Assembly: GCF_964204645.1 (NCBI RefSeq)
Contig: NC_134027.1
Location: forward strand, 22,902,560-22,966,559
Source: Tubulanus polymorphus
Taxonomy: Eukaryota; Animalia; Nemertea
Length of the DNA: 64,000 nucleotides
Direction of reading: 5' to 3'
The notes below the pieces were generated by a model. The model made no database searches. It was not told the origin of the DNA and saw nothing but the letters and a program-made list of their open reading frames with translations. Numbering within the stretch: position 1 is the stretch's first letter; each line of letters starts with the position of its first letter. A program made the translations under genes and the position numbers. Of this stretch, positions 332 to 31,989 are shown piece after piece.

Positions 332-3300
332 TCAACAACTCTTTTCCTGCTGCTCTTTTTCTTCACGTTGTCTGCGGCGTTCGGCCTCTTCTGCTTCCAA
401 ACGAGCGACGAGTTCAGCTTGAACTTGCGGCTCAACGACGCGACCGAGTTCTGAGTACGTCGAATAATCATCGAAATCACCGATAAGCACACCAGGGGGC
501 GCTTGAATTTTGACGTTGTTAACGACGTGTAAATAGATCGGTTCTTTTCTCAGTTCTTCTACATCGTCTGCATTGAATGCAGGGTTGTCGACACCACAGT
601 TAACGTACTTCACGATATCCCCATCGTCATTGTTGTAAACGTCTTGATAAGGATTCTCTTTGTCGCCAATTGTTTGATAGGGATTTTCTGAAATCATACG
701 CGTAACAACATTTAGTGAACTCAACAAACAATCCGTCAAACGATTCAGTTGGCCAGTCTACATCTGGGAATTGAAGGTTACAATAAATCTATCAAACCCT
801 CCCGCATAAAAGTGGCTGCTTTCTGAAATGCCCATGACATCGTCAAGTCTGCCCACTAGTGATTGGATATTTACTTCACGCCCTATTTTCCACAGTAAAC
901 TCTGCCTTACTTGGACTTCTTTTCTTTTCCCTTTTAGAAACGGTATTTTAGAGTTAGCGTATCGGACATCGCACAAAATTTCGATTCTCTCGTTAGAATC
1001 GGTGTACACGTAGAACTCACCCATTTCGTAGTTTCCATTTGTCTCTGCTTTTTTCGCCTTCTTTCCTTTACGCTTTTTGTTTTTCTCGACTTGCGCGTAC
1101 AATGGTTCTGCACTATCCACCGACCCTGAAGAGAAAACACGGGATGTGAATATTTTAGAAACAAACTTCACGTCATACTTTTTCTCGAATATCTAATTTG
1201 GCATTTCATTTTGTGTAGCCAACACATTTTTTTCTTCGAAAAAGTTTCTGAATGTGCTTTTGCTACAAATAAAATCCCTTTAGTATAGATTTCATTCTAT
1301 GCATTTCACCTTTCGTTTTCTGTTTCTTGCTTTTATCCACATTGGAGTTAATTGGATCAGTACCGCTTGCACCATTTACGACTGAAAATGAGCCACAAGT
1401 TTGAAAAAACAAGCAAAAAAAATTTCATACAATTCTATTCGAGAAAATCATTGTTGCGTCATCTATTATTCCTGACAACATTCGCATTATTTACAACAAC
1501 AACGATTCAGTAGTAATACTAAACTGGGAGTCATGATTTCAATGATTGAGGAAAATCGTGATTACTTTCTTAACAAAGCTTTTTCATCGAAAGTGACTTT
1601 ATTGATTCTGTACAAATTATCACGCATTTCTACGGCAATTGACGGCACTCTTCGTGTTTTCAATGATTTCAAGGAATCGGTAAAATCATGATTAGTTTCT
1701 AATGTAAGCCTCTAATGGAAGGTACCGTAGTCTATGCACTTATGGTGGCATGGAATTGTGCGCGACCAATTTCATTAAGTCTTTAGTCTAATACATCGTA
1801 AATAAAAATCGTAGCGGAAAATGCTTTTTGATTTTTTTTTTCACTTTATCTAGTTGGTTTTCATAAAACGAAATTTGAAAGAGTAAAACTATTGCCATTT
1901 CCTCTATGTAACTATGTGTATCGGTAAGTTCTTCGTGAATATACGGCACATGTAATCCTGCTATTCTAAGAGCATTTCACCAAATACGTTGATCGGTTCC
2001 TTGGTATCATTCTAGATTTGACAAACACTTGTTTACCTTGATTCTGATTTCGTTTTTTCTTTTTGTCAACCTGTGCGTAAATCGGTTCTCCTAAAAATAA
2101 TAGAATTCAAAATCTATTCCGATCGCCTCTACCATTCTTCTGGTCAATGATCGAGGAAACGATAGGTTTTTATAGATTGAGCCATCAATATTGTATCATT
2201 TGGCAATTCCCGAATATAAGTGATCACTGTACACTACCGGACATTCCCGAACATTACCGATCACTTCGATCATTACATCCAAAAATACGAACTTGAATTC
2301 GCTACACTTTAAATCAAGCTTCGGACTTAGATATTGAGATAATGAATACGTTAATTGATTCGCGGCTCGGAAATACTCGGTGGTTTTACGGAGATATCCG
2401 GCAATATCGATCGGTCCAAAAAATCTATAAAGATAGGGCATTGTAACATAAAGATAAAACTCTTACCAGTTTTCTTGACTCCATCTTCTGAAACTGCGAA
2501 TATAGAAATGGATTTATTTAAGTACTTATAATGTATTAGTTCTAATTCAGTTATGACAATATTTGTGATACAGTAATACTACGTAAAATCCTACAATTGT
2601 AAATTGGCTAGAAAAGTTTATTCTAAAATTACTCGTGATAATCTGGGGGATTACTGCCACCCTCCTACGAACACTCTTTACTTTAAAGGGAGACGGATGA
2701 AGGAGACTTTTAAGATAGAAGCAGAGTGTTAGCAGCCACCCGCAATTTTTTCGATGATTCTTTTAACAAACCTTCCACTCAATTCAGTAGATCAGAAAAT
2801 ATCTTTATTTCAATAATGACGAAGTCTCAATGAAATGAGGAAATGAACCGATTGCTTACCAAGATCGTCAATGTTCGAATACGGATCTGAAAATGTGAAA
2901 TACGTTTAAGCAACTCATAGACGGCATTGTGATTGAAGAATATTTTATAAAAGTCCGATCTTTAACTTAAAAACTCTGTGCTGAAGATAGAAAATATTTT
3001 TTTTCTTTTTCTTTGCCCATTCGGGATCTAAGAGGACAAAGACAAACGAGAATTTCAATAGTATTTTTCTCTGAAGAAATAGAAAACCCTAATAATTTGT
3101 GCCAATTTTGATACTAACTAAGAAATTCTCGAAACATTTAGAGATGCGATATAACCAAAAATATTGTGGAGATAACGTAGTTCATAATGCGAATTAAAAT
3201 CTGACTGACAAAGATTTTCGACAATAATTTGTGACATGAAACCTGTTGCAATAATCTGTTTGCGTAAATTTTCGGCGTGTAAGAAAGTTGTAAAATTGTG

Positions 3301-6300
3301 AGATTACCGAAGTCATCGGTAGTGACGTGATTATCTTTGGTCGGTGGACTTTTAGGTTTTTTGTTTACTACCGCGTACACGTCACCTAAATGCAAAAATG
3401 GAAAACAAATATTTGAACAAAAAATCCAATATATGTTTATTGTTTAGATGAGATGAAAGGTTTAAAGTGGCAAATTCTACCTCTAGGTCCGGCTGCATGT
3501 CCATCGATATTGTTATCTTTCGGAGGAGGAACTGAAGCCGGACTGAAAAAAGGGAAACATTTTGTGGCGATCGCCCGGGCTGGAAAGGGAATCTCTGACA
3601 TGGAATTAAGCTAAACAAATAGGAATTGAAATCTCTAGTTTCTACCTTCTCGAGCTATTTTTTGTCCAGATCCATTGACCTTCTCGACGCCTTTTCACGA
3701 ATAGCAACACGAACACAATGACGATGATGGCGAGCAACAATACACCCACAACAACACCTCCGATCAGTGCAACATTGGTAGTAACTGAGAGGATCGAAAA
3801 ATGGAAAAATAAAATGTGCAAATTATGACAAGGAAGTATCGATGGGCCTGGATTTCACCAGAGATATTTTTCATTAAGAGCGAACTAGCAAAATGACTAT
3901 AGACATTGGATATCTATGCATTTATTCGTTTGTTTATCTTTCTTTTCAACGTTTGCATCTTGGTTTACCGACACTAACCAGCAAATATTTACCTGGAATT
4001 TCAACCTGATGGCTCAAAATTACGTCACTTCTCTCAGTTACAATCAGTTTGTAACTGTATGCTTGATCGGGATCGATTTTAATCTCAATACTAATCGAAC
4101 CACCAGTAGTTTCTTGTTTCGTAGAATTAAAACATTCGTTTGTATGTTTGATACAGTATTTCACGTAGACGCTGTACTTCGACGGAAACGACGACATTTT
4201 TATCAGGACACTATTTCCTTGCTGTGTTACTGTCGCTTGCTTCAATACGGTGTTTATAGCGCTTGGAATAGCTAGAAAATTAGAGACCATGAATTCGATT
4301 TTAAAAAAAGACCGGAAAAATTATACCATCAACACAATCATCTAGAATGGAGTACGTGTAGCCAATCCGACTAGCTAGAACTAACAGCCGAGTTAGAATT
4401 CTCAAGTATCGGGGATCGAGGAGGCACGTATGTCGCTACGTATTCCGATTCCCATATTCGGATCAACGGGAAGCTCCATGATTCTGAATTTGACCGGAAA
4501 TGATGCGACATCGAATGTGAATGACGTCGGCAAAGTTTACTGGTAAAATGATCCGAAGCAGCTTTTTGTTTGAATTTCTTCGATGACACGCAATGAGGAT
4601 TTTTTTCGAAAATGAGGAATTTAAATCAAACAAAATTACCTAAATCAAAAACTTAACGAATTGAAGAGAATTTACGTTTAATTAATATAACGGGCTTAAG
4701 GATAGGCCTGTATCAATATCTTATAAAACTTACACATCTTACAAGCCTTTAATCTTACCATTTGTATTAGTTGTAACTATATCGGTAAATGGACTTGTAT
4801 TATCACCAGGATTTGAGTTGATACTTTTCACTTTGAACTGATAATTAGTTGCTGGTTTTAATCCGGTAATTTTTGTTTGAACCAGTTTTCTATAACCTGG
4901 GTCGGGTATTCCAGTTCTATTCACGAATCGTATGGAATTCCAAGCCCTGTAACTGACGGCGAACGTTTGTTTGGCACCACCCTCAAATTCAGACACCCAA
5001 CTCAGCGTCACAGAAACAGCTGTTTTTGCAATAACTGACAGATTTGACGGTGTTTGGGGAGGTCCTGAAACAATAAGAAAAAAAAGAAATTCGTTTTATA
5101 GTTTGCGCGCTGCACTAATTTATTAGGATTCAGCAAAATGCAGTCTCGTGTTATTCAGAGTGTTACTCTGGTATTAATCTGAAGCCTGGGCCCAGCATCC
5201 CTGCAGACATCCGACAACTCAAATATTATCAATTGATGAACGACTAACAGAAGAGTTATCATTGAAAATAGGTTTCAGGCTACAATCGATATTTGCAGGT
5301 TTTATTAGAATTGATAAGTGGTATATAGTGCTATAGTGCAAATGACTTGCGAATTTCTGAAAACAACATATAATTCGAAATAGCACATGATTCTTACCAG
5401 TTTCTGTGAGTTTCAGTGTTATATTTATGCTACCAACTGAATTATTGAGTCTACACGAATAAGATCCAAAATCAGACGCCTGAACTGATTGTATGATGAC
5501 ATTCCACTGCGTTAAACTGGTATTTTTCATTTTCCGTCGGTCATTTGTTGAATTGTGTCTACAGTTGAGAGTTGTCGCTAGCGGATTTGCATCGTAGTTT
5601 ATCGTAAATGTAACACTTTCTCCTATATTTGCGGCAACGGGTTCAACTTGTGAAGAAAGCTGCGGTGCATCTATTGTAGAATTAAACTCAATATGTAATA
5701 TTGTATGCAGTGTATATCGAATAAAAAGTTTCTAAAAAATACAAGAGTAATTTTTTTCAGCACTTGAAATATGAGAGAATGTAGAGTGTAGTCTCAAATG
5801 AAGATATGTACCAGTTGCACTAATGCTATGGGGAATTCGATCCCCTTGAGTAACGGAGTAGAACCAAAACAAAATATGGATGAAATGCGGAATATAACTT
5901 AGAATAAAGGTAGATGAATTGTTGAGAACGTTTTCCTTCGATGCAAAGTAATAATGTCCCCCGGACGCTGTCGTTGTACTGTGTATATACTGGTTGTTTA
6001 CATTGGACATCGGTAATAAAATATCACTAATACATGGAGTAAAATTCACTTGTAAGAACACAACGACGCTTTCGTAGGGTTTTTATTTGTTAACTCTACG
6101 CTGAGATGAATATCAGTTCACTAGAGTCAACTGGTTGTTGACAGCGGACATCGGCAATAAAAAGTTACCGATAAATGTAAAATTCACTCGTATGAAATCA
6201 TATCAGTTTTTTACAAGTTTTCTGTGACGAATTAATCATTCGTGGATTTGATTGATATCCGGTCATCTGATATACACTAACTACTATGTTTTACAAAATT

Positions 6301-9300
6301 AAAAGATAATTTTTCATTTTATTGCCTCGGTAATCCAAGACGTCTACCGAAACGGGTATGAATACATCTGATTATTGTGCATCATCATTTATCAAGAAGA
6401 TAAATCGCCTATTCAACACTTACACAATATAGACAACGTCATGGATTTGGTGACACCATTGACAGGATGACTGTTTTGATAAGCTGAACATCTATATTGT
6501 CTTCCATTTTTATCCCTTTCAGTTGGTACTACTAGACTACTAGTAGATGTCTGTCCACTGTGAGATCCGGGTTTATGATTTACTGCTGGATTGGGTAAAC
6601 TATTTGTCCATGTTGTCTTCCCAGAGCTGTACGCCCAGACAATTGTAGACACCGGGTTACTGGAGTCAGATGTACACGTCAGAGTTTTTGATGTACCGTG
6701 GACAACTGGACCGTTTGGAATTTGAGTCAGTGTAATCGACTCGGGTGGAACTGAAAATATAACATTGAAAGTCATGATTGATACTTTATTAGACGGTCAT
6801 TGAAAGATGCGAACATGTGATTTTCTCTTACAGTGAACGGTAATCGTTGTATCTTTGTAAAGATTTCCAGTTTGACATCTGTATCGAGCCTGATTCATGG
6901 TCTTAGTTGCATTAATAGATAATGTACTATTCGCCACAAACCCGTGATTGGCTGCACTAGTTTGACTCGTAGCTGGTTGAGAGTCAAGTCGTGTCAATGT
7001 AGAGGAATTTGTGAACCACTGAATCTGTACAGCCGGGTTTGACGAGTCAGTTTTACACTCTATCTGCTGATTGTTGTTTACTAATACATAATCTGCCGGT
7101 TTCTTCACCATTGTCAGTGTTGTTGCTAGAACTAAATTTTGGATTGTCGCAAGTAAATACAAATTCCCGATGACGTTGTTTGCAACCAAGGTGTATTTGA
7201 ATTGACTGCATGAGATTAACCAAAAATTTAAAGTTAAAAAAATCCGGGTACTTACAGTTGACAGTTAATATGACTTTATCAGAAATCATTAGTGTTGATA
7301 TACCAGCCCCAGTAGCTGTGCATCGATATTCTGCCTGGTTATCGGTTTTAGTGACGGATGTTGAATATGTCAGAGGACTAACTCCCTGTTTCACAGTGCT
7401 GTCCTCTGATATTCTAGTTATAGCCAGGTTCGGTACCGGGTTACCCCCTGTAGCTGTACACGTTATGGCAACGGGTGCGGATTCCTGAACGGGTGACGTC
7501 GGTCCTTGTAATATAACACTACTTGGTGGGTCTGAAATGAAGGAAAAAATTATCTCCAATTTACACACATTTATGTGAGCGGTCATATCTGTCAAAAATC
7601 AGCGTTTAGTCTATCTGCCTGTACTTTGATAAAATGAAATAGTCTATCGTCAAAATGTCTCAATGCAACGTCAGCTCGTGTAATATCGGCTTTTTGACAA
7701 GGGGGCAAAACTGTACGGATAATATACTGATAACTTTTTTCTTACTCCGCGATATTTCAAGGTCGTAGGCAGTACGACTGTGTATTGATAAGCCGGTTTT
7801 CGGTCTCTATTTTCGATTGGAAACCTGTCTAATAAGAGACTTCAGATCCAGTGTAATTGCTTGTCCCCGATAGATTGGTTGCCTTTCGAACTCAGGGCAA
7901 CTTGCATTTGCAGTCCGTTTGAAAAGACAAGGCATCCAGTCTATGTTCCTGATACCGATGTACCGAATCACGCATGAGCCACACCTCAGTAGGAAGTAAA
8001 CACTGCTGATGTACACTGACATACGCAATGGTCTGTCCGTCGGCACTGTTTTATACGACGGCGTCCTAGAGATATTAATCTATTTTTTATTTTCACTTTC
8101 TGGCCATAATTATTTGCGTGTTTACAAAGGCGCATAAAAGTCTCCCATGAATACGATTGCTGATCCAGGCCTTGACCGCAAAATTTCTTATGCACAAATT
8201 AAAATGGCAAAAACAGCGAAAAGCTGACAATTTTCTCAAATCCTTTTTTAACGCGCTAAAAGGGGAATTTCTCACCCACGTTTGGGTGCCCTCACCAGAA
8301 CAGGGTTCCATTCAGGCGCTCGCGCAAAAACAAAAAATTGCGTTTTTTTTAAATCTTTAGATAGGGATTGACACTCCTATCTAATTTGATCGGTAGATTT
8401 CGTAAGATTTTTTTTTGTTTTGATTTAGCGTCCCTACAAACCTACCACATCAGCCGGGAGCAAATCAGGGGTTTGATTCGAAAATCGAAGTACATTTACA
8501 GTTGTTGGATCGGCGGTTGAATATACGGAATATTTTGTTTTAATTGAAGTATATCTGACTCCCCGTCACCTTGATTCAAAATTATATGTTTTCTTGATTT
8601 ACTTTATCTACTCAATTTTCTAACACGCAGGGAAATCCGGCGAACTTAACTGCACCTTTGTAAACGCGCAGATAAATATGGCGGACTTCTCTGCGCCTTC
8701 CTAAACACGCAGATAAATATGGCCGGAAAAGTGAAAACAAAAAATAAATTAATGTCCCTAGGACGCCGTCGTATTTTTAAGTCAGAATCATATTTTTACG
8801 AACCCCGTAATCGTGCATAGATTCGCCCCTCTTAGTTGCAGAGTACGTATTTTCTTAATAGGTCGTTGCGGGGATCAAATGATTTAACGTGAACATTATA
8901 TGCCAGTTAGTGAGGAGGAAGGTCATAAAAAACTACTGTATTCCTATAACCTCAAAAATCGTACATTCAAAAGTCCTGAGTGAAGGGCATGAATTTTGCG
9001 CGAATATTTAAGAAAAGAGTGTACAATTTCCTACGACAAGCGACCTTGATATTATCGCAAAGCAGGAATATACGGTAAACATAACATACGTAAACTATCG
9101 TCCCCTTGTGTAAAACAGCCGACATTACACGATTTGACGTAACATTTACGCGTTTCTTCACTTAAGCATAATTTGTTTTCAATATTGTCTAAATCTAGGT
9201 ATGTTGGACTGGAAGATAAATTGTTTCAATGAAGTGACGTTTATTGTAAATACAGCGCATTTGTTGGTTTTCCGACTCAAATCGATGAATGTATAACCGT

Positions 9301-12300
9301 TAAACACATCACAAGCGCTATTCTACACTTACACAATACAGACAATGTCGTGGAGTTGGTGACACCATTAACGGGATGACTGTTCTGATAAGCTGTACAT
9401 CTATATTGTCTTCCATTCTTATTCTTATCAGTTGATAATACCAGACTACTAGTAGATGTCTGTCCACTGTGAGATCCGGGTTTATGATTTACTGCTGGGT
9501 TGGGTGAAATATTTATCCACGTTGTTGCCCCAGAGCTGTACGCCCACTTAATTGTAGACACCGGGTTACTGGAGTCAGTTGTACACGTCAGAGTTTTAGA
9601 TGTACCTTCAACAACTGGACCGTTTGGAATTTCAGTCAGTGTCATTGATTCTGGTGGAACTATAAACAAATATTTAAATTCACGCTCCTTCATTAGCCAT
9701 TCAGGGAAAGCGCATTTATATGAACAACAATCTACAACACTTCATTTGATATCTGAAATAGTGTTTCATACTTACAGTGAACGGTAATTGTTGTATCTTT
9801 GTACAGATTTCCAGTTTGACATCTGTATTGAGCCTGATTCATAGATTTAGTTGCAGTAATAGATAATGTGCTAGTAGCCACAAACCCGTGATAGGCTGCA
9901 CTAGTTTGACTCGTAGTTGGTTGAGAGACAAGTGCTGTCCATGTGGTGGAGGAATATATGAACCACTGAATCTGTACAGCCGGGTTTGACGAGTCAGTTT
10001 TACACTCCATCTGTTGATTATTGTTAAATAATACACGATCTGCCGGTTTCTTCACCATTGTCAGTGATGTTGCTTGAACTAGAAATAATTTGTTTCAATA
10101 TTGTCAAATCCGAGGATGTTGACGAAACAAAATCACGTCAAAAATAGAACCACATTAACTTCACGAGGTTACGAGTAATTTGTAAACAATGTATAGTACT
10201 ACTTACAGTTGACAGTTAATACGAATTTATTAGAAATCATTGGTGTTGGTATACCAGCCCCAGAAGCTGTACATTGATATTTTGCCTGGTTATCTGTTTT
10301 AGTGACGGATGTTGAATATGTTAGAGGACTAACTCCCTGTTTCACAGTGCTGTCCTCTGATGTTCTAGTTATGGCGAGGTTCGGTACCGGGTTACCCCCT
10401 GTAGCTGTACACGTGAAGTCAACGGAAATGGAATCCCGAACTGGTGACGTCGGTCCTTGTAATGCAACACTGCTTGGCGGATCTGAAATGGACGAGAAAA
10501 ATATTTTGCTAGCGGAAAAAAATTGAAGAATTGAAGCCGAAACGTCATGATTCAAAATAGAACGAATTTCATATAATTTCTCAATTCACTCTGATTAATG
10601 AACCTCTACGTGTAGTTTAGAAACAGGTTTCATTTGGTAATTAATCCGGTGCGAAATATTTTCGAATGATCTGAAATGATATATTTTAGATTTTAAACTT
10701 ACAGTAAACGGTAATCGTTGTATCCTTGTAAAGATTTCCAGTTTGACATCTGTATCGAGCTTGATTTATAGTTTTAGTTGCAGTAATAGATAATGCGCTA
10801 GTAGCCACAAACCCGTGATTGTCTGCACTAGTTTGACTCGTAGCTGGTTGAGAGGCAAGTGGTGTCCATGTTGAAGTGGAATATGTGAACCACTGAATCT
10901 GTACAGCCGGGTTTGACGAGTCAGTTCTACACTCTATCTGTTGATTATTGTTTACTAACACATAATCTGCCGGTTTCTTCATCATCGTCAGCGTTGTTGC
11001 TTGAACTAGAAATCATTTGTTCTCGATATTGTCAAAATCCGTGTGTGTTGACGAAACAAAATTATGTCAAAAATAGAACCGCAGTTACTTCATGGGAATA
11101 ACGAGTAATTTGTAAAATATCTGCAGTACTTACAGTTGACAGTTAATCTAACTTTATTTGAAATCATTGGTGTTGGTATACCAGGTCCAGTAGCTGTACA
11201 TTGATATTCTGCCTGGTTATCTGTTTTAGTGGCGGATGTTGAATATGTTAGAGGGCTTATTCCCTGTTTGACAGTGCTGCCACCTGGTGTTCTAGTTATG
11301 GTGAGGTTCGTTACCGGGTTACTCCCTGTAGCTGTACACGTTAAGTCAACGGATACGGATTCCTGAACGGGTGACGTCGGTCCTTGTAATGTAACATTAC
11401 CTGGCGGGTCTGAAATTAAAAGTGTTAAAAAGCGATTATCTTTATCGATGAGTTATATGTACAACAGCAACAGATTATTCTGTACAATTTCATATTTCAG
11501 ATTACCGGCCCAAATTCATTTGAAATGCATTAAAACCTCATATTTATTCCAAGCATAAGCTTCTGCATGAAGCTTTTTACGGAGTTATTTCTCTCATTCA
11601 AATAGATATAAAATATGAAGTATCGAGTCAAGTCCAACAATAACAATGCATTCGCATGAATACATTTCTCGTACGTTATTGATGATGTTTTAATTGTTCC
11701 GGTTCGCTGGTAAACTGCCGCATATTTTTCAAAGCCGCGTCTCACCCGATCACAATCGTGACGAATAGACTTCATGAAGAGAAAATATGGTGAATATCGA
11801 TCGATGGGAAGATTCATTTGAATGAAATATGTATATCTGTTTTAATTAATGGGACATAAGGGGTCTAGAACACACCCGATTGAATAGGGTAAAATATGCC
11901 TCAGAAGAGTCCGCGTTTAAAGGATAAACGCGTTTAGATTAATATTTTGTGGTAATCTGACGATATTTTCTTGCCTACTTCATTATTCTAGATAATTGCT
12001 TTATCCCGATGTGACCAAATGTCATTTGATAAGGATAGAATCTGAAACTTTAACATAATTCAGCCTCATAAATGCACTTCATAATAAACTCCGTAAAGGA
12101 GTCGCGCGCGTTTCCCTCAGCTTTCAACGCAGATATAGGTTATAGGTACCTATAAATATCTCATTTCTTTATCGAAATCGATGAAACACAGATTTGAAAA
12201 ACGAACTCCTTTGAATCCATTGACTGGGTTATTTCTAACAAATTTCTGTTACGAATTGCCTAATATGAATACTAGGTAAATCACGTGTGTTCATCTATCT

Positions 12301-15300
12301 TAACGTAATACTTACATAGAACATTGATAGCAATACTACCAGCAACTGATCCTGCTATATTCGATACGTTACATGTATAAAAACCTGAATCAGTTCTACT
12401 GATTCGTGTAAACCTGAGTTTATTATTAGACTGTCCTGATAGATTGGCACCACTCCATTTATACGTCAGTCCTGTAGCTCCAGACTGTGAACTGTCACAT
12501 GTGATTGTTAATTGTGAATTCTCCTGTACTTTGACGATGTTGTCGATGGCGGCGGTTGGTTCAGATGTTAGAACTGGTCCACTCGGGGGCGCTGTAAATA
12601 TGAAACTATATTGGAAACTACGGGGGTTTCGGTGGTTCATTTATTCATAGATTTAGGCAATTTTAAAGAAATCATCAACATAAGAATTAATACATCAACA
12701 TGAATCAGTTGTAGATCACAAAATATCCGTGATAAAACGATAAGAGTAAAATCCCACTATAAATGAATTGATAGATAAAAAGTTTAATTCGAATGTAAGA
12801 AATATTACCCTCCTTCAGTCTAAAATGACTTTAAAAAAAACGCATGTACATAAATACATTGTCTATGCATGAAATAAGATACGAATTACTGCACATTAAG
12901 TAATGGGGACAGGAGTATTGACATATTTTGAAAAACAGATGTAATGGGGGCTGAAACCTTTATTGAGGTTGACAGAGAGTTCGGAATGAGTACAAATCAA
13001 AAGCGGATTCTTACTATGTGGTGTCTATAGTGAGATTGCTGTTTGGAAAAGCAATATTGGCTCCAGGGAATTCAAAAGTATGCCCGATTTGCAAAGAATA
13101 GAGACTACTTACCCCACATATCTAATTTCACCCTCTTAAAAGCATCTCGTTTATGTTCCTTGATTCTTCCCAGTTTCCCCAATATAAAAAGGTTACAATC
13201 AGGGCAGTGAGAACAGAACAGGAAAATATACTTTTTTAGCTTTGTGAAGTGCTTTCTCTAAAAAGGTTGATTATGTTACTAAAATTTCAGCGTTGTGCAC
13301 ACATAAAGTGAAATTGACCATGATTCTGGGGCATTTTGGGCGGCCATAGCCCCTTAATGCCCCAACCAAAAAATGCAAGAAAGCACTTTTACCCGATAAT
13401 TTATTTGGAAGTATTGAAATTTGCAATCAAACCTATTGTACGCTAAAATGGAATTGAAACCCACCTTTGAGCTCTCCTTCCATCTAAAATATCATTGCCT
13501 AAAAAGTTTTTATCACAAATCCTTAGAAGCTCCAAGGGAAAGACCCTGAACAACCACCACTTTAAGGTAAGCTTGAGTGAATGGAAAGAAATTCAGGTAC
13601 GATTCACAGCTAGTAAGTTTACGAAAAACAGAGAAACCTAATCTCGAATTAAGATTTTGTATGAAAACATCCAAAAATGGGTTTTTTCCATCGAACTCCC
13701 ACTCGAAGGTAAACTTCTAGGAAGGATAAATAAAGGCTCAAGTATAGTATACGGAAAAGTAGAACGATGAGACTTTTCACAAGCAAAAATCAATGCGCCA
13801 GAGATCAGTGTAGGTTAGTTTTACTTGCCGACATCGCCGACATTGCCGACATTGGGAAAGAGATATTTAATGTCGGTTAGTTTAACTTGCCGACATCGCC
13901 GACATTGCCGACATTGGGAAATAGATATTTAATGTTGGTGACCAAATCACAACTTCAGTTTCTATATAATCATACACCGGAGGAACTACAATCCCATATA
14001 CTATACTTGATCCTAAATAAAGGGAATTAAGAAATGTCAAAAGATGTCAAGGATGAGATCAGTTGACACTAAACATAAAATATAATCGACATAACTGCGC
14101 CATAGAAGAGGCGCGAATATAGGGCAAAATTTCAGATTCAATGTGTTCTAAGAAAAGGTTAGCTAGAGTAGGCGATAGAGGCCCGTAGCGAAATCATATA
14201 GCGCAAAGAAAATGCCATCAAATTGAAAATAGGCTCTTCTAGCGCATAATTCTAAAATATCAACGAGACAGTTAACTGAGGCAGGATAATTCAAATTACA
14301 GGACGGGAGTTAACGTTTGATAAAATCTGAAGTGAGTTCCAGAGGGATCTATGCTGTGAATAGAGAGACTGTGTAAAAAGAAATGAACTTGTTACAATTA
14401 GGGGTAATGTGACGTCTTGTAGTAAATCAATATCATGTTTGATATGAGAACCAGAGAACGAACCAACAAAGGAGAAAGCGTTTTTTCAATCGAGGATCCA
14501 GAAAGATATCAAGAGGGAGAGCCCCTTCTTGAGATGATAAGATGCGTAAAGGGACATTACTTTTACGAATCTTAGGGGGGCTGTAAGGATAAGGCGGTAA
14601 GCTGGGTAATCGGCTGGTCAATTTCATAATAAATCTATCATCAGTAGGGTGTTAACATATACTGTGTATTTATGTTGGCAGTCATTTTAGACTGAAGAAG
14701 GGTGGCAGCAACCACCCTTTCTAATATTTCAAATATTAAACAAGTTAGCAATCAATTCATTTATCGCGGGATTTTACTCTTATAAATCAACATGCTACAA
14801 ATGATTAGAGTACGTGTAAAATGTTACACGTTTTACTCACGTTAATTTAATTAATAAAGCTTTTATAATGTTATTACTCGTCACATTTTTTAACTCGCAG
14901 TCAGTGAATTGTTCAAACCCAGATCACATGGTGAATGCAATTTCACAGTCACTCTTCATCACTGAACACGATAAGAAAAATGAGATATTATTGAACTTTT
15001 TATCATTCTTACCTATTACAGTAATTATTGTGTTACTATTTGGAAAAGAGTTCATGTAATCACACTTCCACTTTCCAGAATCAATCATCCGTACATTAGT
15101 GATACGTATACCATAGCGTCCAGCTGTGACGTCACATTCTCCTGTGTACCCAGTGATAGTTCCCCTAGGACAGTTAATCTCGTCAAACTCAAACTGCCCC
15201 GATTGGCCAGCTATTGTTATTCTGAAACCGCAGAAATGTTTTCCGGGTGGTGAAACCTGACATTGTACGACAGTGGTGCCACCTAGTTTTACAACTTCTG

Positions 15301-16757
15301 GTGATGCAACTGTCGTGAGTGTCGTATCCGCTGCGTCTATACAGTTCTGCTGTTGTCCTAGAAATATTCAAAACCCTCATATATATAATTTGTTGACCAA
15401 TCAAAACCTTAGGCATGATGTCAAATGTTGTTGCTACACATGTATTAAGTCCCAAAAAAGGCGATCAGCAATCGTATTAACCGCATTGATTTACTATGGA
15501 AATGAAACATAGGGACCGAAAATTTTCATCGTTTTAAACGGATTTTTCATGTCATCGAGTTTGCATTTTTACTAGTTTCTCGTACAAATCATTGCCATAC
15601 AGCGAGTTTCGTAATAGCACGTCTCGTATTAACGAGGTTCCACTGTATATAGACCATACGACGATCTCTAGAGAGAGTTCGAAACTTGGTACGTTTACAA
15701 AGAGGATTCAGTGACGAAAATCTGGTAAAGATGCATTGAGCGCTACAGCGTCTAGTGTTATAATATCTGTTGCTTTTCGGTTTTTATGAGAACAAATTGA
15801 ATACTCCTGTTAAATAGAATCTTTGTTCGTTATCATTTTTCTTCTTTTTACACAGTTGGAAATTTAAGAAAATGTCATGAAATGCGCATTGTCAGTAATG
15901 GATCAGGTGATTGATGAAATCAGTGTAAATCGGGGTTTGAAACTGCCATTTGCTCTGACAGCGGTTAATTCGGCAACGATCGACAATTCAAAAAAGCAAA
16001 AACCTGGCTCCCTCATGCCATCTTTACTGCATTTTCTACCTAAATCAAAATATATGAAACGCCAGGCTCATCGTCAATCCTACTTGCATTTCACGGTAGA
16101 AATATGCCTCCCGCGTCACTTTTGAGAAACCAGTGCGTGATGAGAAACACGGTATGAATTTTGAATGGCCTTAATTAGTGGTAGTATTTACCTGCTGTAG
16201 ATCTAACGCAGAGAACAACAATCACAAACACACACCAAACTACCGGTACATTCTGAATATATATTAGAACAATAAATTACTTGTGTTTGTCATAACCAAA
16301 ATTTTCATTTCAAAATCAATTAAATCGACGTCTCTTTGAAACGTGTTGATGGACTTAAAAACTATTTAACTATTTATAACCATATGTTTGTAATCGAAAG
16401 CAGTAATGCTAGATCTATTGACGAATAAGCCGCCTGATCTCTCTAAACTCAAAATTGTTTGAACCATTTTATCAATGGAATGAAGTCTTTGCTTTGATTA
16501 TGGAGTGCCTTTAAATAAAGTCAAGTCGTGTGAAAATTCGTTTGAGTAACTTATGAATCTGAACATATTATGGAACTATCGGTTATTTTTAATAACAAAT
16601 CCATGTGTGGAACTAACACAATTGTCTTACAGTTGAAAGGTGGCCGTGCTGGCTATTAGTAATGTTTCAGGCCAGTCGCCTATATGCGTGTCTACGATTG
16701 TACTGCATATATATATATAGGCCTATGTGTACTCACTTGGACGCGTTGGTCGTTCAT
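332..16757 (-). CDS. Gene A1: multi-exon nephrin-like IgSF receptor (signal peptide, V, 10 further Ig, FN3, FN3-like, TM, long Tyr-rich tail), ~1620 aa
   Basis: Manually spliced GT-AG exons, all in frame: 16737-16757 (MNDQRVQ), 16192-16252 (leader NVPVVWCVFVIVVLCVRSTAG), V 15013-15357, Ig 12316-12591, 11134-11409, 10703-11005, 10207-10482, 9776-10078, 9333-9659, 7256-7531, 6832-7131, 6424-6750, 5398-5670, FN3 4759-5064, FN3-like 3993-4271, TM 3646-3784, tail 3481-3542, 3308-3385, 2860-2886, 2467-2487, 2037-2090, 1310-1381, 1021-1125, 332-687. CxxxxSNP/GGNP Ig motifs and the WVSEFEGGAKQTF FN3 motif resemble the nephrin/Sidestep family. Confidence 0.85.
8054..8773. mobile_element. Non-autonomous DNA transposon/MITE with ~70 bp TIRs
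   Basis: TACGACGGCGTCCTAG...CTAGGACGCCGTCGTA termini with extended inverted similarity; not seen at the equivalent B1 position. Confidence 0.75.
12740..14785 (-). mobile_element. Decayed Penelope-like element copy in the A1 intron
   Basis: Reverse-complement copy of 19572-21375 (ORF 14433..14627) with a nested MITE. Confidence 0.72.
13735..14013. mobile_element. A1-specific MITE nested in the Penelope fragment, with an internal 2x62 bp tandem repeat
   Basis: TIR GGCTCAAGTATAGTATA / TATACTATACTTGATCC flanked by duplicated TAAATAAA; empty site in the other three copies; repeat units start at 13813 and 13875. Confidence 0.75.
15013..15357 (-). CDS. V-like N-terminal Ig exon of A1 (missed by the ORF track)
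   Basis: 345-nt phase 1-1 exon: QQQNCIDAADTTLTTVASPEVVKLGGTTVVQCQVSPPGKHFCGFRITIAGQSGQFEFDEINCPRGTITGYTGECDVTAGRYGIRITNVRMIDSGKWKCDYMNSFPNSNTIITVI; V-set-like IxNVxxxDSGxWxC motif. Confidence 0.85.
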
Positions 16758-17694: not shown

Positions 17695-20600
17695 ATGTAT
17701 GGAAAGGTAAGGATGAGAGCTACCACGTATTTCATCCAAATTCATTTTTGTAGATTAAATCTATGCAGTTACATTGATTAACTAAAGCTTGTGACTGATA
17801 AATGCGTGGTAAATCATTATCTATCGAAATCCAAACGAAAACTGATTTCGAAGCCGATATCACACGTGACAAATTAGTAATGCACACATTAATTTTCGGT
17901 CCCGGTTTGACGGTGTTATTTATCAACAAAATTTTTTGATTAACAAATTCACATCTAGCGCAGACAGACACCCCTGATATTCTAACATCAAGCAGATTGT
18001 GAAATCACGCTGCTTCAGTACATTATCTTCATTACAGATGTGTTTGGCAGGGATTGTGGTATCATTTCTAATGTGGAAAGGAATAATCGGTAATATACAG
18101 TACAAATTTCTACTTGCAAAGCCGACCACAAGTGACATGATTAATTAATTTTGCATTGTGAATGTAACAAAAATCATTAGAAGACATGCAGTCATCGGCT
18201 TTTCATGAGATTTGACATCAGGATAAAAGTTCCTTAATCCATTAGTAAGAACGCGCTAATCCGTGTACGCTGTAGATGATTGAAGAAATCCCGCAATTCG
18301 AATTTGAATGAAAAGTTTACTTTTTTATCGTAAAAAAATTGAATTGTGGGATTTCTTCAATTAATTCCTTAATCCACTTAGTATCCATAATGACAGAATA
18401 TTTAATGCATAATCCTGTCCTTTTTCAAAGCAAATTTGATTATGAGAAGTTTTGTACATCCTCTACCCGACCATCATTACGATTTCCCTCAAATTTCAAC
18501 TCCGACTCACTTCAGCATATCAAGGCCTAACAACTAATAGATTGACGCAGTTTATACTCAACACAGATGACCTGATACGTTTCGTAATTCAAATATATAT
18601 TCTTACAACGATAACTCGGACGCAATTTCATAAACGTTTTTCCTGATAAAAGTTTATACCAAGGAAATGCACTGTTAATGATATCTTGAGGAAATACAAT
18701 CTGTGAGCAACGTTGCTAGAATGTTTTGACATCATATGAATGATATCATGCGAAATATGTAATGAATAAATCATGTATCTAAAATCATGTTGATTCAGTT
18801 TATAATCGCGTAAGTAGAAATCTGACTAATTCCACGTTTTTGTCACGAATTAATAATTATTTGTGGATAGTTTTTCAACAACCTTCTCTGCATTTATAGA
18901 ATAAGGCTTCGTATATTGACTTCAACTCGAGTTATGATGTACCAGTTGATATCTGTCTAAAGTCGACTATAAACAAACTTTCATTTCCATTGAAAATTTC
19001 AGGGCAGCAACAGAACTGTATCGACGCAACGGATACGACGCTCACGACAGTTGCAACACCAGCAGTTGTAAAACTAGGTGGCAGCACTTTCGTACGATGT
19101 CAGGTTTCACCACCCGGTAAACATTTATGCGGTTTCAGAATAACAATATCTGGCCAATCGGGACAGTTTGCGTTTAACTGTCCTCGTGGAACTATCACTG
19201 AACCCCGGTACTTTGGACAATGTGACATCACAGCTGGACGCTATGGTATACGTATCCATAATGTACAGATGATTGATTCTGGAAAGTGGAGGTGTGATTA
19301 CATGAACTCTTTTCCAAACAGTAACGCAATAATTACTGTAAGAGGTAAGCATGATAAAAAGTTCAATAATATCTCATTTCCCTTATCGTGTTCAGTGATG
19401 AAGAGTGACTGTGAAATTGCATTCACCATGTGATCTGGGTTTGAACAATTCACTGACTGCGAGTTAAAAATGTGACGAGTAATAACATTATAAAAGCTTT
19501 ATTAATTAAATTAACGCGAGTAAAACGTGTAACATTTTACGCGTACTCTAATCATTTGTAGCATGTTGATTTATAAGAGTAAAATCCCGCGATAAATGAA
19601 TTGATTGCTAACTTGTTTAATATTTGAAATATTAGAAACATATCGGGTGGTTGCTGCCACCCTTCTTCAGTCTAAAATGACTGCCCAAATAAATACACAG
19701 TATATGTTAACATCCTACTGATGATAAATTTATTATGAAATTGACCAGCCGATTACCCAGCTTACCGACTTATCCTTACGGTCCCCCTAAGATTCGTAAA
19801 AGTAATGTCCCTTTACGCATCTTATCATCTCAAGAAGGGGCTCTCCCTCTTGATATCTTTCTCGATCCTCGATTGAAAAAACGCTTTCTCCTTTGTTGGT
19901 TCGTTCTCTGGTTCTCATATGAAACAAGATATGGATTTACTACAAGACGTCACGTTACCCTCAATGGCAACAAGTTCATTTCTTTTGACACAGTCTCTCT
20001 ATTCACAGCATAGATCCCTCTGCAACTCACTTCAGATTTTATTAAACGTAAACTCCCGTCCAGTAATTTGAATTTTCCTGCCTCAGTTAACTGTCTCGTT
20101 GATCTTTTAGAATTATGCGCTAGAAGAGCCTATTTTCAATTTGATAGCATTTTCTTTGCGCAATATGATTTCGCTAAAGGCCTCTATCGCCTATTATTGA
20201 CTAGCTAACCTTTTCTTAGAACGACATTGAATCTGAAATTTTACCCTATATTCGCGCCTCTTCTATGGCGCAGTTATGTCGATTATATTTTATGTTTAGT
20301 ATCAACTGATCTCATCCTTGACATCTTTTGACATTTCTTAATTCCCTTTATTTATCCTTCCTAGCAGTTAACCTCCGAGTGGGAGTTCGATGGAAGAAAC
20401 CCATTTTTTGATGTTTTCAGACAAAATCTTAATTCGGGATTATAGGTTTCTCTGTTTTTTGAAAACTTACTAGCTGTGAATCCTACCTGAATTTCTTTCC
20501 ATTCACTCAAACTTACCTTAAAGTGGTGGTTGTTCAGGGTCTTTCCCTTGGGCCTTGGATTTGTGATAAAAACTTTTTAGGCCATGATATTTTACATAGT

Positions 20601-23600
20601 AGGGGAGCTCAAAGGTGGGTTTCAATTCCATTTTAGCGTACAATAGGTTTGATGGCAAATTCCAATATTTCCAAATAAATTATCTGGTAAAAGTGCTTTC
20701 TTGCATTTTTTGCTTGGGGCATTAAGGGGCTATGGCCGCTCAAAAATGCTTCAGAATCATGGTCAATTTCACTTTATTTGTGTACAACGCTGAAATCTTA
20801 GTAACATAATTAACCTTTTTTTGAAAAAAACTTGCATACCCGGACAAAGTTTTAGAGAAAGCACTTCACAAAGCTAATAAAGTATCTTTCCCTGTTCTGC
20901 TCTCACTGTCCTGATTGTAACCTTTTTATATTGGGGAAACTGGGAAGAATCAAGGAACATAAACGGGATGCTTTAAAGAGGGTGAAATTAGATATGTGGG
21001 GTAGTCTCTATTCTTTGCAAATCGGGCATACTTTTGAATTTTCTGGAGCCAATATTCCTTTTCCAAACAGCAATCTCACTATAGACACCACATAGTAAGA
21101 ATCCGCTTTTGATTTGTACTCATTCTGACCGCTCTGTCAACCTCAATGAAGGTTTTAGCCCCCATTAGATCTGTGTTTCAAAATATGTCAGTACTCCAGT
21201 CCCCATAACTTAATGTGCAGTAATTCGTATCTTATTTCATGCATAGACAATGTATTTATGTACATGCGCTGTGTTTTATTTTGCAAGTCATTTTAGACTG
21301 AAGGAGGGTAATATTTCTCACATTCGAAGTAAACTTTTTAGCTATCAATTCATTTAGTGTGGAATTTTACTCGTATCGTTTTATCACGGATATTTTGTGA
21401 TCTACAACTGATTCATGTTGATGTATTAATTTTGATGTGGATGATTTCTTTTAAATTGCCAAAATCAATAATTTGGCAGGCGTATTGAAAATGTACCATC
21501 GAAACCTCCGTGGTTTCAAAATACATGCAGTTTCATAATTACAGCGCCCCCGAGTGGACCAGTTCTAACATCTCAACCAAACACCGCCATCAACAACATC
21601 GTCACAGTACAGGAGAATTCACCATTAACAATCACATGTGACGGTTCACAGTCTGGAGCTACAGGACTGACGTATATATGGAGTGGTGTCAATCCATCAG
21701 GACGGTCTAATAATAGACTCAGTTTTACACGAATCAGTAAAACTGATTCAGGTGTTTATACATGTACAGCATCGAATACAGCAGGAACAGTTACTGGTAA
21801 TATTGCCATCAATGTTCTATGTAAGTATTACGTTGAGATAGATGAACACACGTGATTTACCTAGTATTCATATTAGGTAATTTGTAGCAAAAATTTGTTG
21901 GAAATAACCCAGTCAATGGATTCAAAGGAGTTCGTTTTTCAAATCTGTGTTTCATCGATTTCGAAATATTCGAAACGAAATATTTATAGGTACCTTCCTA
22001 TATCTGCGTTGAATGCTGAGGAAAACGCGCGCGACTCCTTTATGGAGTTTATTATGAAGTGCATTTATTTTATAAGGCTGAATTATTATCAAATGACATT
22101 TTGTCACATCGGTATAAAGCAATTATCTAGGATAATGAAGTAGGCACGAAAATATCGTCAGATTACCACAAAATAATAATCTAAACGCGTTTATCCTTTA
22201 ACCACGGACTCTTCTGAGGCATATTTTACCCTATTCAATCGGGTGTGTTCTAGACCCCTTATGTCCCATTAATCATAACAGATATACATATTTCATTCAA
22301 ATGAATCTTCCCATCGATCGATATTCACGATATTTCCTCTGAAGTATATTCGTCACGATTTTGATCGGGTGAGACGCAGCTTTGAAAAGTATGCGGCAGT
22401 TTACCAGCGAACCGTAACGATTAAAACATCAATAACGTACGAGAAATTTATTCATGCGAATGCATTGTTGGACTTGACTCGATACTTCATATTTCATATC
22501 TATTTGAATGAGAGAAATAACTCAGTAAAAAGCTTCATGCAAAAGCTTATGCTTGTAATAAATATGATTTTTAATGCATTTCAAATGAATTTTGGCCGGT
22601 AATCTGAAATATGAAATTGTACAGAATAATCTGTTGCTGTTGTACATATAACTCATCGATAAAGATAATCGCTTTTTAACACTTTTAATTTCAGACCCGC
22701 CAAGTAGTGTTACATTACAAGGACCGACGTCACCCGTTCAGGAATCCGTATCTGTTAACGTAAAGTGTACAGCTACAGGGGGTAACCCGGTACCGAACCT
22801 CGCCATAACTAGAACACCAGGGGGTAGCACGATAAAACAAGGAATAAGCCCTCTAACATATTCAACATCCGTCACTAAAACAGATAACCAGGCAGAATAT
22901 CAATGTACAGCTACTGGGGCTGGTATACCGACACCAATGATTTCTAATAAAGTTAGATTAACTGTCAAATGTAAGTACTATACATTGTTTACAAATTACT
23001 TGTTATTCCCATGAAGTAATTGCGGTTCTATTTTTGATATAATTCTGTTTCGTCAACACACCCGGATTTTGACAATATCGAGAACGAATGATTTCTAGTT
23101 CAAGCAACAACGCTGAAAATGGTGAAGAAACCGGCTGATTATGTATTAGTAAACAACAATCAACAGATAGAGTGTAAAACTGACTCGTCAAACCCGGTTG
23201 TACAGATTCAGTGGTTCACATATTCCTCTACAACATGGAAACTACTTGACCCTCGACCAGCTACGAGTCAAACAAGTGCCGCCAATCACGGGTTTGTGGC
23301 TACTAGCACATTATCTATTACTGCGACTAAAACCATGAATCGAGCTCAATACAGATGTCAAACTGGAAATCTTTACAAAGATACAACGATTACCGTTTAC
23401 TGTAAGTTTAAAATACATTAGTTCTAAAATATATCATTTCAGATCATTCGAAAATATTTCGCACCGAATTAATTACCAAATGAAACCTGTTTCTAAACTA
23501 CACGTAGAGGTTCATTAATGAGAGTGAATTGAGAATTTATATGAAATTCGTTCTATTTTGAATCATGACGTTTCGGCTTCAATCCTTCAATTTTTTTCCG

Positions 23601-26600
23601 CTAGCAAAATATTTTTCTCGTCCATTTCAGATCCGCCAAGCAGTGTTGCATTACAAGGACCGACGTCACCAGTTCGGGATTCCACTTCCGTTGACTTCAC
23701 GTGTACAGCTACAGGGGGTAACCCGGTACCGAACCTGCTAATATCTAGAACACCAGTTGGCAGCACTGTGAAACAGGGAGTTAGTCCTCTAACATATTCA
23801 ACATCCGTCACTAAAACAGATAACCAGGCAAAATATCTATGTACAGCTTCTGGGGCTGGTATACCGACACCAATGATTTCTAATAAATTCGTATTAACTG
23901 TCAACTGTAAGTACTATACATTGTTTACAAATTACTCGTAACCTCGTGAAGTTAATTTGGTTCTATTTTTGTCATGATTTTGTTTCGTCAACATCCTTGG
24001 ATTTTGATAATATTGAAACAAATTATTTCTAGTTCAAGCAACATCACTGACAATGGTGAAGAAACCGGCAGATCGTGTATTATTTAACAATAATCAACAG
24101 ATGGAGTGTAAAACTGACTCGTCAAACCCGGCTGTACAGATTCAGTGGTTCATATATTCCTCCACCACATGGACAGCACTTGTCTCTCAACCAACTACGA
24201 GTCAAACTAGTGCAGCCTATCACGGTTTTATGGCTACTAGCGCATTATCTATTACTGCAACTAAATCTATGAATCAGGCTCAATACAGATGTCAAACTGG
24301 AAATCTGTACAAAGATACAACAATTACCGTTCACTGTAAGTATGAAACGCTATTTCAGATATCAAATGAAGTGTTGTAGATTGTTGTTCATATAAATGCC
24401 CTTTCCCTGAATGGCTAATGAAGGAGCGTGAATTTAAATATTTGTTTATAGTTCCACCAGAATCAATGACACTGACTGAAATTCCAAACGGTCCAGTTGT
24501 TGAAGGTACATCTAAAACTCTGACGTGTACAACTGACTCCAGTAACCCGGTGTCTACAATTAAGTGGGCGTACAGCTCTGGGGCGACAACATGGATAAAT
24601 ATTTCACCCAACCCAGCAGTAAATCATAAACCCGGATCTCACAGTGGACAGATATCTACTAGTAGTCTAGTAGTATCAACTGATAAGGATAAGAATGGAA
24701 GACAATACAGATGTACAGCTAATCAGAACAGTCATCCCGTTAATGGTCTCAACCAAACCACAACATTGTCTATATTGTGTAAGTGTGGTATAGCACGTGT
24801 AATGTGTTTAACGGTTACATATTATTTCATTCATCGATTTGAATCGGAATACCAATCATTATCTGCATCTTCATGGTTCATTAAGATTAAATCAACCAAA
24901 TGCGCTTTACTTATTTACAATTCGCATGATTTCAGTTCAACATCCGTAGATTGAGAGAATATTGAAAACAAATTATGATATGCTTAATGGTGAAAAACGG
25001 GCAGATTATGTGTTAGTAAACAATAGTCAGATCGAATGTAAAACTGAATCAGTCTTCGATCGATTTTCTTTACTTTGATAAGATATGATAGTCTACCGTC
25101 AGATTATCTCAATGTAACGTCAAATTGTTTAATATCGGCTTTCTGACACGAGGGGGCGATAGTGTGCGTATGATACGTTTGCCATATTTTTCATGTTTTG
25201 TAATATTATCAAAGTCGTTACGTAGAATCTTTGCAACTATTCCTTAATTTTCTTGCAAACTTCATGTTCTTCTCTCGGGGCTTTTGAATGTACAATTTTT
25301 GAAGTTTTAGAAACACTAGTTTTCCGGCCATTCTCCTTACGTCTGCTGTTACATAAAAATCTAACAGAGAATCACATCGAGTTACATCGTGTTCATTTAT
25401 TGGTCCTCGCAATGACCAATTAGAAAAATACCCTGCAAAGAGGTATGAATCGCTAGATGTCGTACAAAAACAGGGTTTGGACTGTATTCCCGTTTTGCAT
25501 ATTTCGGTAGAAGAGCTGACATGCGCAGTAAGAATCAATTCTGTACTCAGTAAGAACCTTCACGCTCTGGACGAGTTCTCCATAGTTCATGCAAGAAATT
25601 ATTGGCGTAATCGAGTCTATGAGAATAAATCAATTCTGACTTGAAACGGTACCAACAAGCGGACCCCTGCAGGTGTTTGTCTTATTTGGGTGTTTTTCTT
25701 TATCAGCAGTGCTTACTTCCTACTGAAGTGGCGCATGCCTGATGCGGTACATCGGTATCAGGGACATAGACTGGTTGCCTTGTCTTTTCGAACTTACTGC
25801 GAATGCAGTGGCCCTGAATTCGACAGGCAACCATTCTATCAGGGACAACGATTACAACGATTACCGTTCACTGTAAGAGAAAATCACATGTTCGCATCTT
25901 TCAATGACCGTCTAATAAAGTATCAATCATGACTTTCAATGTTATATCTTCAGTTCCACCCGAGTCAATTACACTGACTGAAATTCCAAACGGTCCAGTT
26001 GTTCACGGTACATCAAAAACTCTGACATGTACAACTGAATCCATTAACCCGGTGTCTACAATTGTCTGGGCGTACAGCTCTTGGACGACAACGTGGACAA
26101 ATATTTCACCCAACCAAGCAGTAAATCATAAACCCGGATCTCACAGTGCACGGGCATCTACTAGTAGTCTAGTAGTACCAACTGATAAGGATAAAAATGG
26201 AAGACAATATAGATGTACAGCTTATCAGAACAGTCAAACTGTCAATGGTGTCAACACATCCATGACGTTGTCTATATTGTGTGAGTGTTGAATAGGCGAT
26301 TTATCTTCTTGATAAATGAAAATGCACAATAATCAGATGTATTCGTAGCCGTTTCGGTAGAGGTCTTGGATTACTGTAGCAATGAAATGAAAAATTATCT
26401 TTTAATTTTGTAAAACATAGTAGTTAGTGTTTATCAGATGACTGGATATCAATCAAATCCACGAATGATTAATTCGTCACAAAAAACTTATAAAAACTGA
26501 TTGCAGTAAAAACTGATATGATTTCATACGAGGGAATTTTACTCCATTTATCGGTAACTTTTTATTGCCGATGTCCGCTGTGAACAACCAGTATGACTAT

Positions 26601-31590: not shown

Positions 31591-31989
31591 CAGAACAGAA
31601 TACCAATGACCAGCTGGAACTTTTTACTGACTCGAAAAACTAGCACGATGTGCTTGTAACATCGAAAATAAATTATACGACCCTTCTACTCCGTGGATGG
31701 ATTCAAAGTTATTTGCAGCGTCATATGTACTTTGAAATGATTCCTGAAGAAACAATGTTAAGATTTCGTTTTGTTTTCGCTTTCTCGTCGAACAAACACA
31801 AAATATACGTAAATTGATAAACAAGTTGAACGGGTGCAATTAGAAATAGGTCTAGTTGTTGATGCCGTTAGACTATGCAACAAGTTCGAATTCCTACGAG
31901 TGACGGTCTATTCTGAAAAATCTGTCGAAAGTAACTGTAATTTCTGCTTGTTTCCTCATTCACACTTATTCATTACCTACGTAAATTAC

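Follow-up and report, generated by a model that had tools for sequence, protein, structure and literature searches.

EPIYA-type tyrosine motifs, in tandem and in varying copy number, are known from the bacterial protein CagA, whose A and B segments are described as Csk-binding and whose C and D segments are described as SHP2-binding in the available text of PMC2768901 and PMC13457649; the EPIYA/EPLYA sites of the host proteins Pragmin and p140Cap likewise appear, in the text at hand, as ligands of Csk's Src homology 2 (SH2) domain. Paired receptors, as outlined in the available part of PMC13358205, are linked genes with near-identical ectodomains and different tails, the long tail bearing inhibitory-type motifs. 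Multi-exon tyrosine tails and invertebrate Ig clusters are already known as well, as far as the accessible text of the sources goes. The tail of the Ig receptor PECAM-1 is spread over eight exons, and alternative splicing removes SH2 sites from it (PMC5664058). Botryllus FcoR belongs to an expanded immunoglobulin superfamily cluster with gene pairs, truncating splice variants and [A/D]VYxxV core motifs (PMC12582321); Hydractinia Alr combines Ig and FN3-like domains with alternative tyrosine-motif tails (PMC9546547), and an oyster receptor with an ITAM (immunoreceptor tyrosine-based activation motif) is a further invertebrate example (PMC11999971). Here, a 64-kb stretch of DNA from the nemertean Tubulanus polymorphus (the window; 64,000 nucleotides of contig NC_134027.1, positions 22,902,560 to 22,966,559) was analyzed with respect to the tail of one receptor gene, A1, and its neighbor B1.

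The window is AT-rich animal DNA carrying a cluster of one receptor family. Positions 1-22468 are repeated at 40698-63765, i.e., the whole A/B block is duplicated, and within the window A1 stands head-to-head with B1 and A2 with B2. A1 lies on the minus strand, runs from about 16.2 kb down to position 332 and encodes a V-set-like domain, 10 Ig domains, an FN3 domain, an FN3-like domain, a transmembrane (TM) segment and the tail. In the proposed reading, which is given an even chance, the A tail forms the cytoplasmic part, assembled by splicing, of a single-pass Tubulanus receptor of the multi-Ig/FN3 type; its exon-duplicated Y[AS]xV[DN]K motifs, each followed by basic residues, are predicted Src/Abl targets and likely Csk docks, and A is the likely inhibitory member of a predicted pair with B.

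All eight tail exons have AG/GT ends, and contigs of sequencing run X4 span each of the eight introns that lie between the TM exon and the last one. This run has no RNA label on record and was taken as RNA because its joints are GT-AG. Runs X1-X3 also cover the tail introns, with none of these joints among the joints listed (15 of 31). Since X4 reads the letter of the other copy at 465, 631, 1085 and 1349 at full depth, splicing and expression hold for the A type and are not assignable to A1 itself; relative to all covering X4 contigs, A1 has Asn for Tyr at 1349 and Tyr for Phe at 465, a private allele or an assembly error. The same exon chain is present in RefSeq models, possibly derived from the same data. 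Between 3385 and 1021, all six exons have lengths in multiples of three and phase 1-1, a phase also used by ectodomain exons and hence not peculiar to the tail. The exons and listed motifs of the micro-exon array claimed earlier are all present on the minus strand and spliced, but only two of the eight tail exons are shorter than 51 nt. Nor does one motif per micro-exon describe the tail well, with 5 of the 11 listed motifs and 7 of the 12 tyrosines in the last exon and one micro-exon devoid of tyrosine, and the basic patch said to follow the motifs is found after only four of them.

The A1 tail contains three Y[AS]xVxK motifs, compared with a mean of 0.016 in shuffled tails (0/20,000 shuffles reached this count), and 8 of its 12 tyrosines have V, I or L at +3 (shuffle mean 1.9; 1/20,000). 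In the ectodomain, used as a control, the latter holds for 3 of 41 tyrosines and Y[AS]xVxK does not occur. These counts are not independent events, given that the patterns were picked with the tail in view and that three exons are homologous to one another. EPIYA at 2079 and EPLYA at 1099 are both encoded downstream of the TM exon, which places EPIYA-type pentapeptides in the predicted cytoplasmic region. In nine of nine full-length A-tail proteins, STY[ST]EL and DNPx[YF] are kept and YE[ED]V is absent; isoforms are included, so the number of genes is smaller. The modular phosphotyrosine docking tail in a host receptor that had been proposed is well supported. Two further parts of the last exon were noticed. 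The DNPx[YF] site (NPxY/F type; window 535-600, minus strand), kept in all full-length A tails and related to an NxAF in B tails, is a possible trafficking signal, and the part from EPIYLHV to the charged helix (window 335-540, minus strand) is the best-conserved of the A tail and a possible folded or oligomerizing element. The last exon gave no Pfam match and no usable ESM Atlas match.

The likeness to CagA proved closer than first claimed: EPIYAQVDKKK of the 54-nt exon is identical in 10 of 11 residues to the end of the CagA A-D segment, EPIYAQVNKKK (Table 2 of PMC2768901, as available). The tail shares with CagA A/B, Pragmin and p140Cap a motif of the Csk-binding class, and several tandem copies in varying number are present as well. 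The setting differs, since in Tubulanus the motifs belong to a transmembrane receptor of a marine worm and are carried by exon copies, while Pragmin and p140Cap, both cytosolic proteins, carry one or two. Beyond the motif, no homology is expected. Isoforms of Nematostella XP_048588798 (family P0031-P0037, P numbers denoting retrieved database proteins; automatically named titin/hemicentin-like) were the only 2 non-Tubulanus entries among 9 matches. They are multi-Ig single-pass receptors with two YAQVDK motifs, accompanied by lysine runs, in the tail; the match is weak (E 5.8-8.2), so the likeness of the tails counts as recurrence and not as homology. The Nematostella receptor differs in having an FN3-like segment inside the cell, and one of its isoforms lacks the distal tail. 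Because the motif also occurs in this Ig receptor tail, the CagA likeness is read as convergence on a host Src-substrate, Csk-ligand grammar. No EPIYA occurred among the literature matches listed (20 of 290) when EPIYA arrays in invertebrate receptors were sought, and no description of such arrays or of this Tubulanus family was found in the literature searched, most subscription papers and supplements being outside that search.

An inhibitory receptor acting mainly via SHP-type phosphatases, with the YxxV/I/L sites as tandem ligands resembling immunoreceptor tyrosine-based inhibition motifs (ITIM) and Csk in a secondary role, would account for 8 of the 12 tyrosines and for the invariance of STY[ST]EL, which persists even in P0006, an A tail without Csk-type motifs. 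It would also suit YSNIDDL, which matches the SHP2-binding C segment of CagA at 5 of 7 residues and is encoded by the exon skipped in RefSeq isoforms. However, the repeated motifs have Pro, Asp or Thr at -2 instead of I, L, V or S and match CagA A/B rather than C/D, and the single broad ITIM ([SIVL]xYxx[ILV]) of the A1 tail is expected by chance (34% of shuffles), although the site is kept in nine of nine full-length A tails. This alternative is considered unlikely. An activating A tail, in which the ENPY doublet would serve Syk/Shark as an ITAM while the remaining sites amplify the signal, is very improbable. Invertebrate Ig receptors with ITAMs do exist (PMC9546547, available text), and A1 shows the YxxI-x6-YxxV spacing. 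Against this, the strict ITAM (Yxx[IL]-x6-12-Yxx[IL]) does not occur in the A1 tail, in most copies both +3 positions are Val, and in one the second site is broken; the doublet looks like a ten-residue internal repeat, and one YxxPhi doublet arises in 7.5% of shuffles. Three YxN sites arise in 6.7% of shuffles. By count, the ITIM, ITAM-spacing and YxN matches of the earlier note are not distinguishable from chance.

The A/B pairing, which that note had left out, suggests a predicted inhibitory/activating pair. A1 and B1 are alike at the DNA level, introns included, up to the TM donor (86-100% identity down to 3651, 50-68% beyond), and unrelated past it. The B tails have 60-102 residues; in nine of nine proteins (isoforms included, hence fewer genes) Y[AS]xVxK is absent and a single YE[ED]V stands at the end. 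A 14-row tree built from the membrane-proximal ectodomain sorts the sequences by locus and not by tail, and an A-only clade is rejected (p-AU 0.00106, approximately unbiased test). P0008, with an A tail, and P0020, with a B tail, lie on contigs of the same 16.48-Mb size, apart from the window contig; they are 97% identical in this region (support 100/100), at about 68% to the window genes, and 92% identical over 923 residues, lowest in the first 100. Two A-type proteins, P0005 and P0008, share only 54-62%. The locus-wise sharing of ectodomains is the genomic signature of paired receptors, and the genes fit the definition in the available part of PMC13358205, since they are adjacent in the window and their ectodomains are nearly identical but their tails differ. 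The pair does not show canonical ITIMs on one side together with an ITAM or an adaptor-coupling charged TM on the other (A1 has one broad ITIM and no strict ITAM). Compared with described paired receptors, B has its own tyrosine tail ending in YE[ED]V instead of a charged TM segment with DAP12, A has no canonical ITIM pair, and the opposite functions are a prediction. Botryllus FF/FcoR differs in combining a receptor and a co-receptor from two families, whereas the Tubulanus pair has one shared ectodomain. FcoR and Alr showed no sequence homology to the Tubulanus family among the matches of its searches, although the [A/D]VYxxV motifs of the former resemble the 78-nt exon.

Mechanistically, ligand clustering would lead Src-family or Abl kinases to phosphorylate the tyrosines preceded by acidic residues, and several Csk molecules would then be recruited in a multivalent manner, shutting down Src kinases in the vicinity. 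An SHP-type phosphatase may be added by STYSEL, the lysine runs may keep the unphosphorylated tail on the inner leaflet, and DNPx[YF], of a class of trafficking signals, may direct endocytosis or recycling. Phosphorylated YEEI is a ligand of the Src SH2 domain, and the pYEEI-like terminal YE[ED]V of the B tail would act opposite to the A tail. Signal strength would be set mostly by the paralog expressed and only marginally by splicing. A broader and speculative proposal, judged rather unlikely, is that of a protostome paired system wired on Src control instead of ITIM/ITAM, in which one conversion-maintained ectodomain is joined either to an exon-amplified Csk-docking array or to a Src-SH2-type YEEV tail, Y[AS]xV[DN]KKK being an old nemertean/cnidarian receptor-tail motif copied nearly exactly by CagA segment A. 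Host proteins that serve as models of the CagA A/B motif are cytosolic scaffolds carrying one or two sites, and a natural membrane receptor series graded from 0 to 5 sites would suit the question of motif dose versus Csk output. Among vertebrates, pairs of receptors with converted ectodomains are a paradigm, which a ribbon-worm candidate would extend to spiralians; the reach is limited by a family possibly present in one lineage without experimental tools.

Several observations weigh against the proposed inhibitory, Csk-docking tail. No clear constraint is seen between A1 and A2, with mismatches at 21/920 exon and 69/2532 intron positions, and nonsynonymous (pN, 12/567) and synonymous (pS, 4/147) differences in the tail give no detectable constraint. 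In raw counts, two paralogs keep their Tyr and +3 positions better than the other positions (15/17 vs. 168/238 and 11/12 vs. 138/193), which is not so in a third (6/8 vs. 110/137). P0006 is an A paralog without any Y[AS]xVxK, and A1 itself has lost one tyrosine to Asn in the 72-nt exon. The B proteins have no charged TM residue (by inspection) and no ITAM, and the A-only group tested as a clade had been chosen after the tree was seen. RefSeq models in the tandem cluster may be chimeric, P0001 and P0009 sharing a tail start but ending with tails of different tandem copies by mis-mapping or read-through. The V-set exons have pN below pS in 6 of 6 window pairs, with no whole-domain sign of diversifying selection, which counts against an immune arms race. 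Finally, EPIYA-type peptides are promiscuous, a LspA1 fragment being bound by Csk, Nck1/2, Shp2 and Grb2 (PMC4030455, available text), so Csk is only a likely partner.

The last two points, purifying selection on the V-set and peptide promiscuity, also fit a receptor for adhesion or cell recognition that would work like nephrin/SYG-2 or PECAM-1 and use its tail as a broad platform for adaptors (Nck, Grb2, Crk, SHP2) serving the cytoskeleton, with no inhibitory or activating polarity. The three YxN sites point the same way, as do the many C2-set Ig domains, FN3, single TM segment and tyrosine tail shared with nephrin, SYG-2 and Sticks-and-stones, and RefSeq names the matches nephrin-like or syg-2-like. 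These names are automated, however. The nephrin tail has a YDxV Nck array, and nothing like it is present in the A tail; the Tubulanus receptors further differ in the N-terminal V-set, the Ig number varying by internal duplication, the extra FN3-like domain, the gene cluster and the unrelated tail. No nephrin of another species was among the matches of the sequence searches with the family, and no tree with nephrins was made. With a lineage-restricted, expanded family and two fixed tail classes on shared ectodomains, the adhesion explanation is possible, though on the improbable side. Neutral drift of exon copy number in a young tandem cluster, the A/B ectodomain identity being a by-product of recent inverted duplication, would agree with the low A1-A2 constraint and with the duplication of the whole A/B block. 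It is nevertheless extremely improbable, since A/B sharing of another, different ectodomain is found again on a second contig, frames and splice sites are intact in both the A1 and A2 tails, and the motif recurs in a cnidarian receptor.

As for the origin of the array behind the proposed docking tail, the 54-, 72- and 105-nt exons are mutually similar at the DNA level (z 4.0-6.7; 0/500 shuffles), while for the 78-nt and 27-nt exons no homology to other tail exons could be demonstrated (best p 0.04 among 21 comparisons). The 72-nt exon is freshly tandem-duplicated in A2. X4 contigs carry spliced forms with one and with two copies, a pattern that skipping and a paralog difference would produce alike. 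A-tail proteins have 0, 2, 3, 4 or 5 Y[AS]xVxK motifs. The gaps match whole exons, and A2 has its new copy of the 72-nt exon; gain and loss of exons between paralogs is therefore the main way in which the array is built and tuned. B tails likewise expand by exon duplication; a degenerate third copy of their two-exon unit (31117-31342), 70% identical to 30602-30828, is not in the RefSeq B model.

The suggestion that the tail is splice-tunable is weakly supported. The 27-nt YSNIDDL exon is skipped in the automated RefSeq isoforms P0002, P0003 and P0010, and an upstream acceptor of this exon truncates the tail or triggers decay, with a reading frame that differs between copies. The depth at the alternative-acceptor joint (72 vs. 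323) is a contig mean, with 18.6 in the stretch beyond, and gives no usage level. Among 10 X4 joints, none skips a tyrosine exon of the single-copy structure, X4 contigs dropping rare forms. Joints 1123-3312, 679-1042 and 1069-2860 were rejected as exon skipping, as their inserted letters and exon gaps fit the paralogs P0007 and P0008. The tail differs in this respect from PECAM-1, a single gene with a dual ITIM, because it varies chiefly from one paralog to another, with hardly any skipping seen.

Table 1. Features of the A1 receptor gene and of related genes in the window.
Feature	Position in window	Strand	Basis
A1 V-set-like Ig exon	15013..15357	-	Open 345-nt exon; Pfam V-set E 0.0028, below cut-off
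A1 ten further Ig-domain exons	5398..12591	-	Pfam Ig families 10/10; exon ends for eight
A1 FN3 exon	4759..5064	-	Pfam fn3 E 1.9e-10
A1 FN3-like exon	3993..4271	-	Weak PF21605 E 0.012; splice joints in run X4
A1 TM exon; A1/B1 similarity stops at its donor	3646..3784	-	X4 joints
Tail exon, 62 nt, phase 2 to 1, rich in proline, without Tyr	3481..3542	-	X4 joints
Tail exon, 78 nt, YAVVNK, Tyr codon 3377	3308..3385	-	X4 joints, motif scan
Alternative acceptor 141 nt upstream of 27-nt exon, reads into stop	2887..3027	-	Joint 44453-44735 at A2 counterpart; RefSeq P0012; translation
Micro-exon, 27 nt, YSNIDDL, Tyr codon 2881; left out in some RefSeq isoforms	2860..2886	-	X4 joints, RefSeq
Micro-exon, 27 nt, no Tyr, absent from the earlier note's list	2467..2493	-	X4 joints
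Tail exon, 54 nt, EPIYAQVDKKK, Tyr codon 2079	2037..2090	-	X4 joints, motif scan
Tail exon, 72 nt, Asn in A1 vs. YSNVDK in other copies; duplicated in A2	1310..1381	-	X4 joints
Tail exon, 105 nt, two Tyr: EPLYAQV and NYEM	1021..1125	-	X4 joints, motif scan
Last exon (356 nt), seven Tyr: ENPY doublet, DNPx[YF], EPIYLHV, STYSEL, charged helix-like end, stop	332..687	-	
Paralog A2, tandem duplicate of 72-nt exon (42346-42275, 42089-42018)	41039..56295	-	
Gene B1, head-to-head partner of A1, with ectodomain and TM of the same type and a short B tail that ends in YEEV	19003..31591	+	
Gene C, diverged, apparently 5'-incomplete, B tail	34264..37759	+	
Gene B2, partner of A2, extends past window end	60313..64000	+	

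With respect to the family, the last exon of A1 is 98% identical to Tubulanus polymorphus XP_074645941, and database matches were all from this species (8/8 in one search, 12/12 in another). A HMMER search with the FN3-like exon gave 6 of 8 matches from Tubulanus; the other two, P0023 and P0024, were discarded as repeat-driven and look spurious. By these searches, A1 is a member of an expanded Tubulanus polymorphus receptor family that may be confined to one lineage. None of the retrieved RefSeq proteins agrees with the window along its whole length; the window therefore represents another haplotype or individual.

A signal-peptide-like A1 exon was noticed at 16191-16250 (minus strand). The Ig exons at 6424-12591 and 22695-26280 are repeated three-exon units with 80-88% DNA identity, and the Ig number varies among paralogs. 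Gene C has one to two Ig exons, FN3, FN3-like, TM and B-tail exons; its 5' exons were not found, and its YVNVAF-type site differs in reading from P0021. A 460-bp insertion in an A2 intron (43145-43604), not in A1, has high depth and loose ends in X4 and is likely a mobile element fragment. Some 2.7 kb separates the starts of A and B, which face away from each other, and may be a promoter region used by both.

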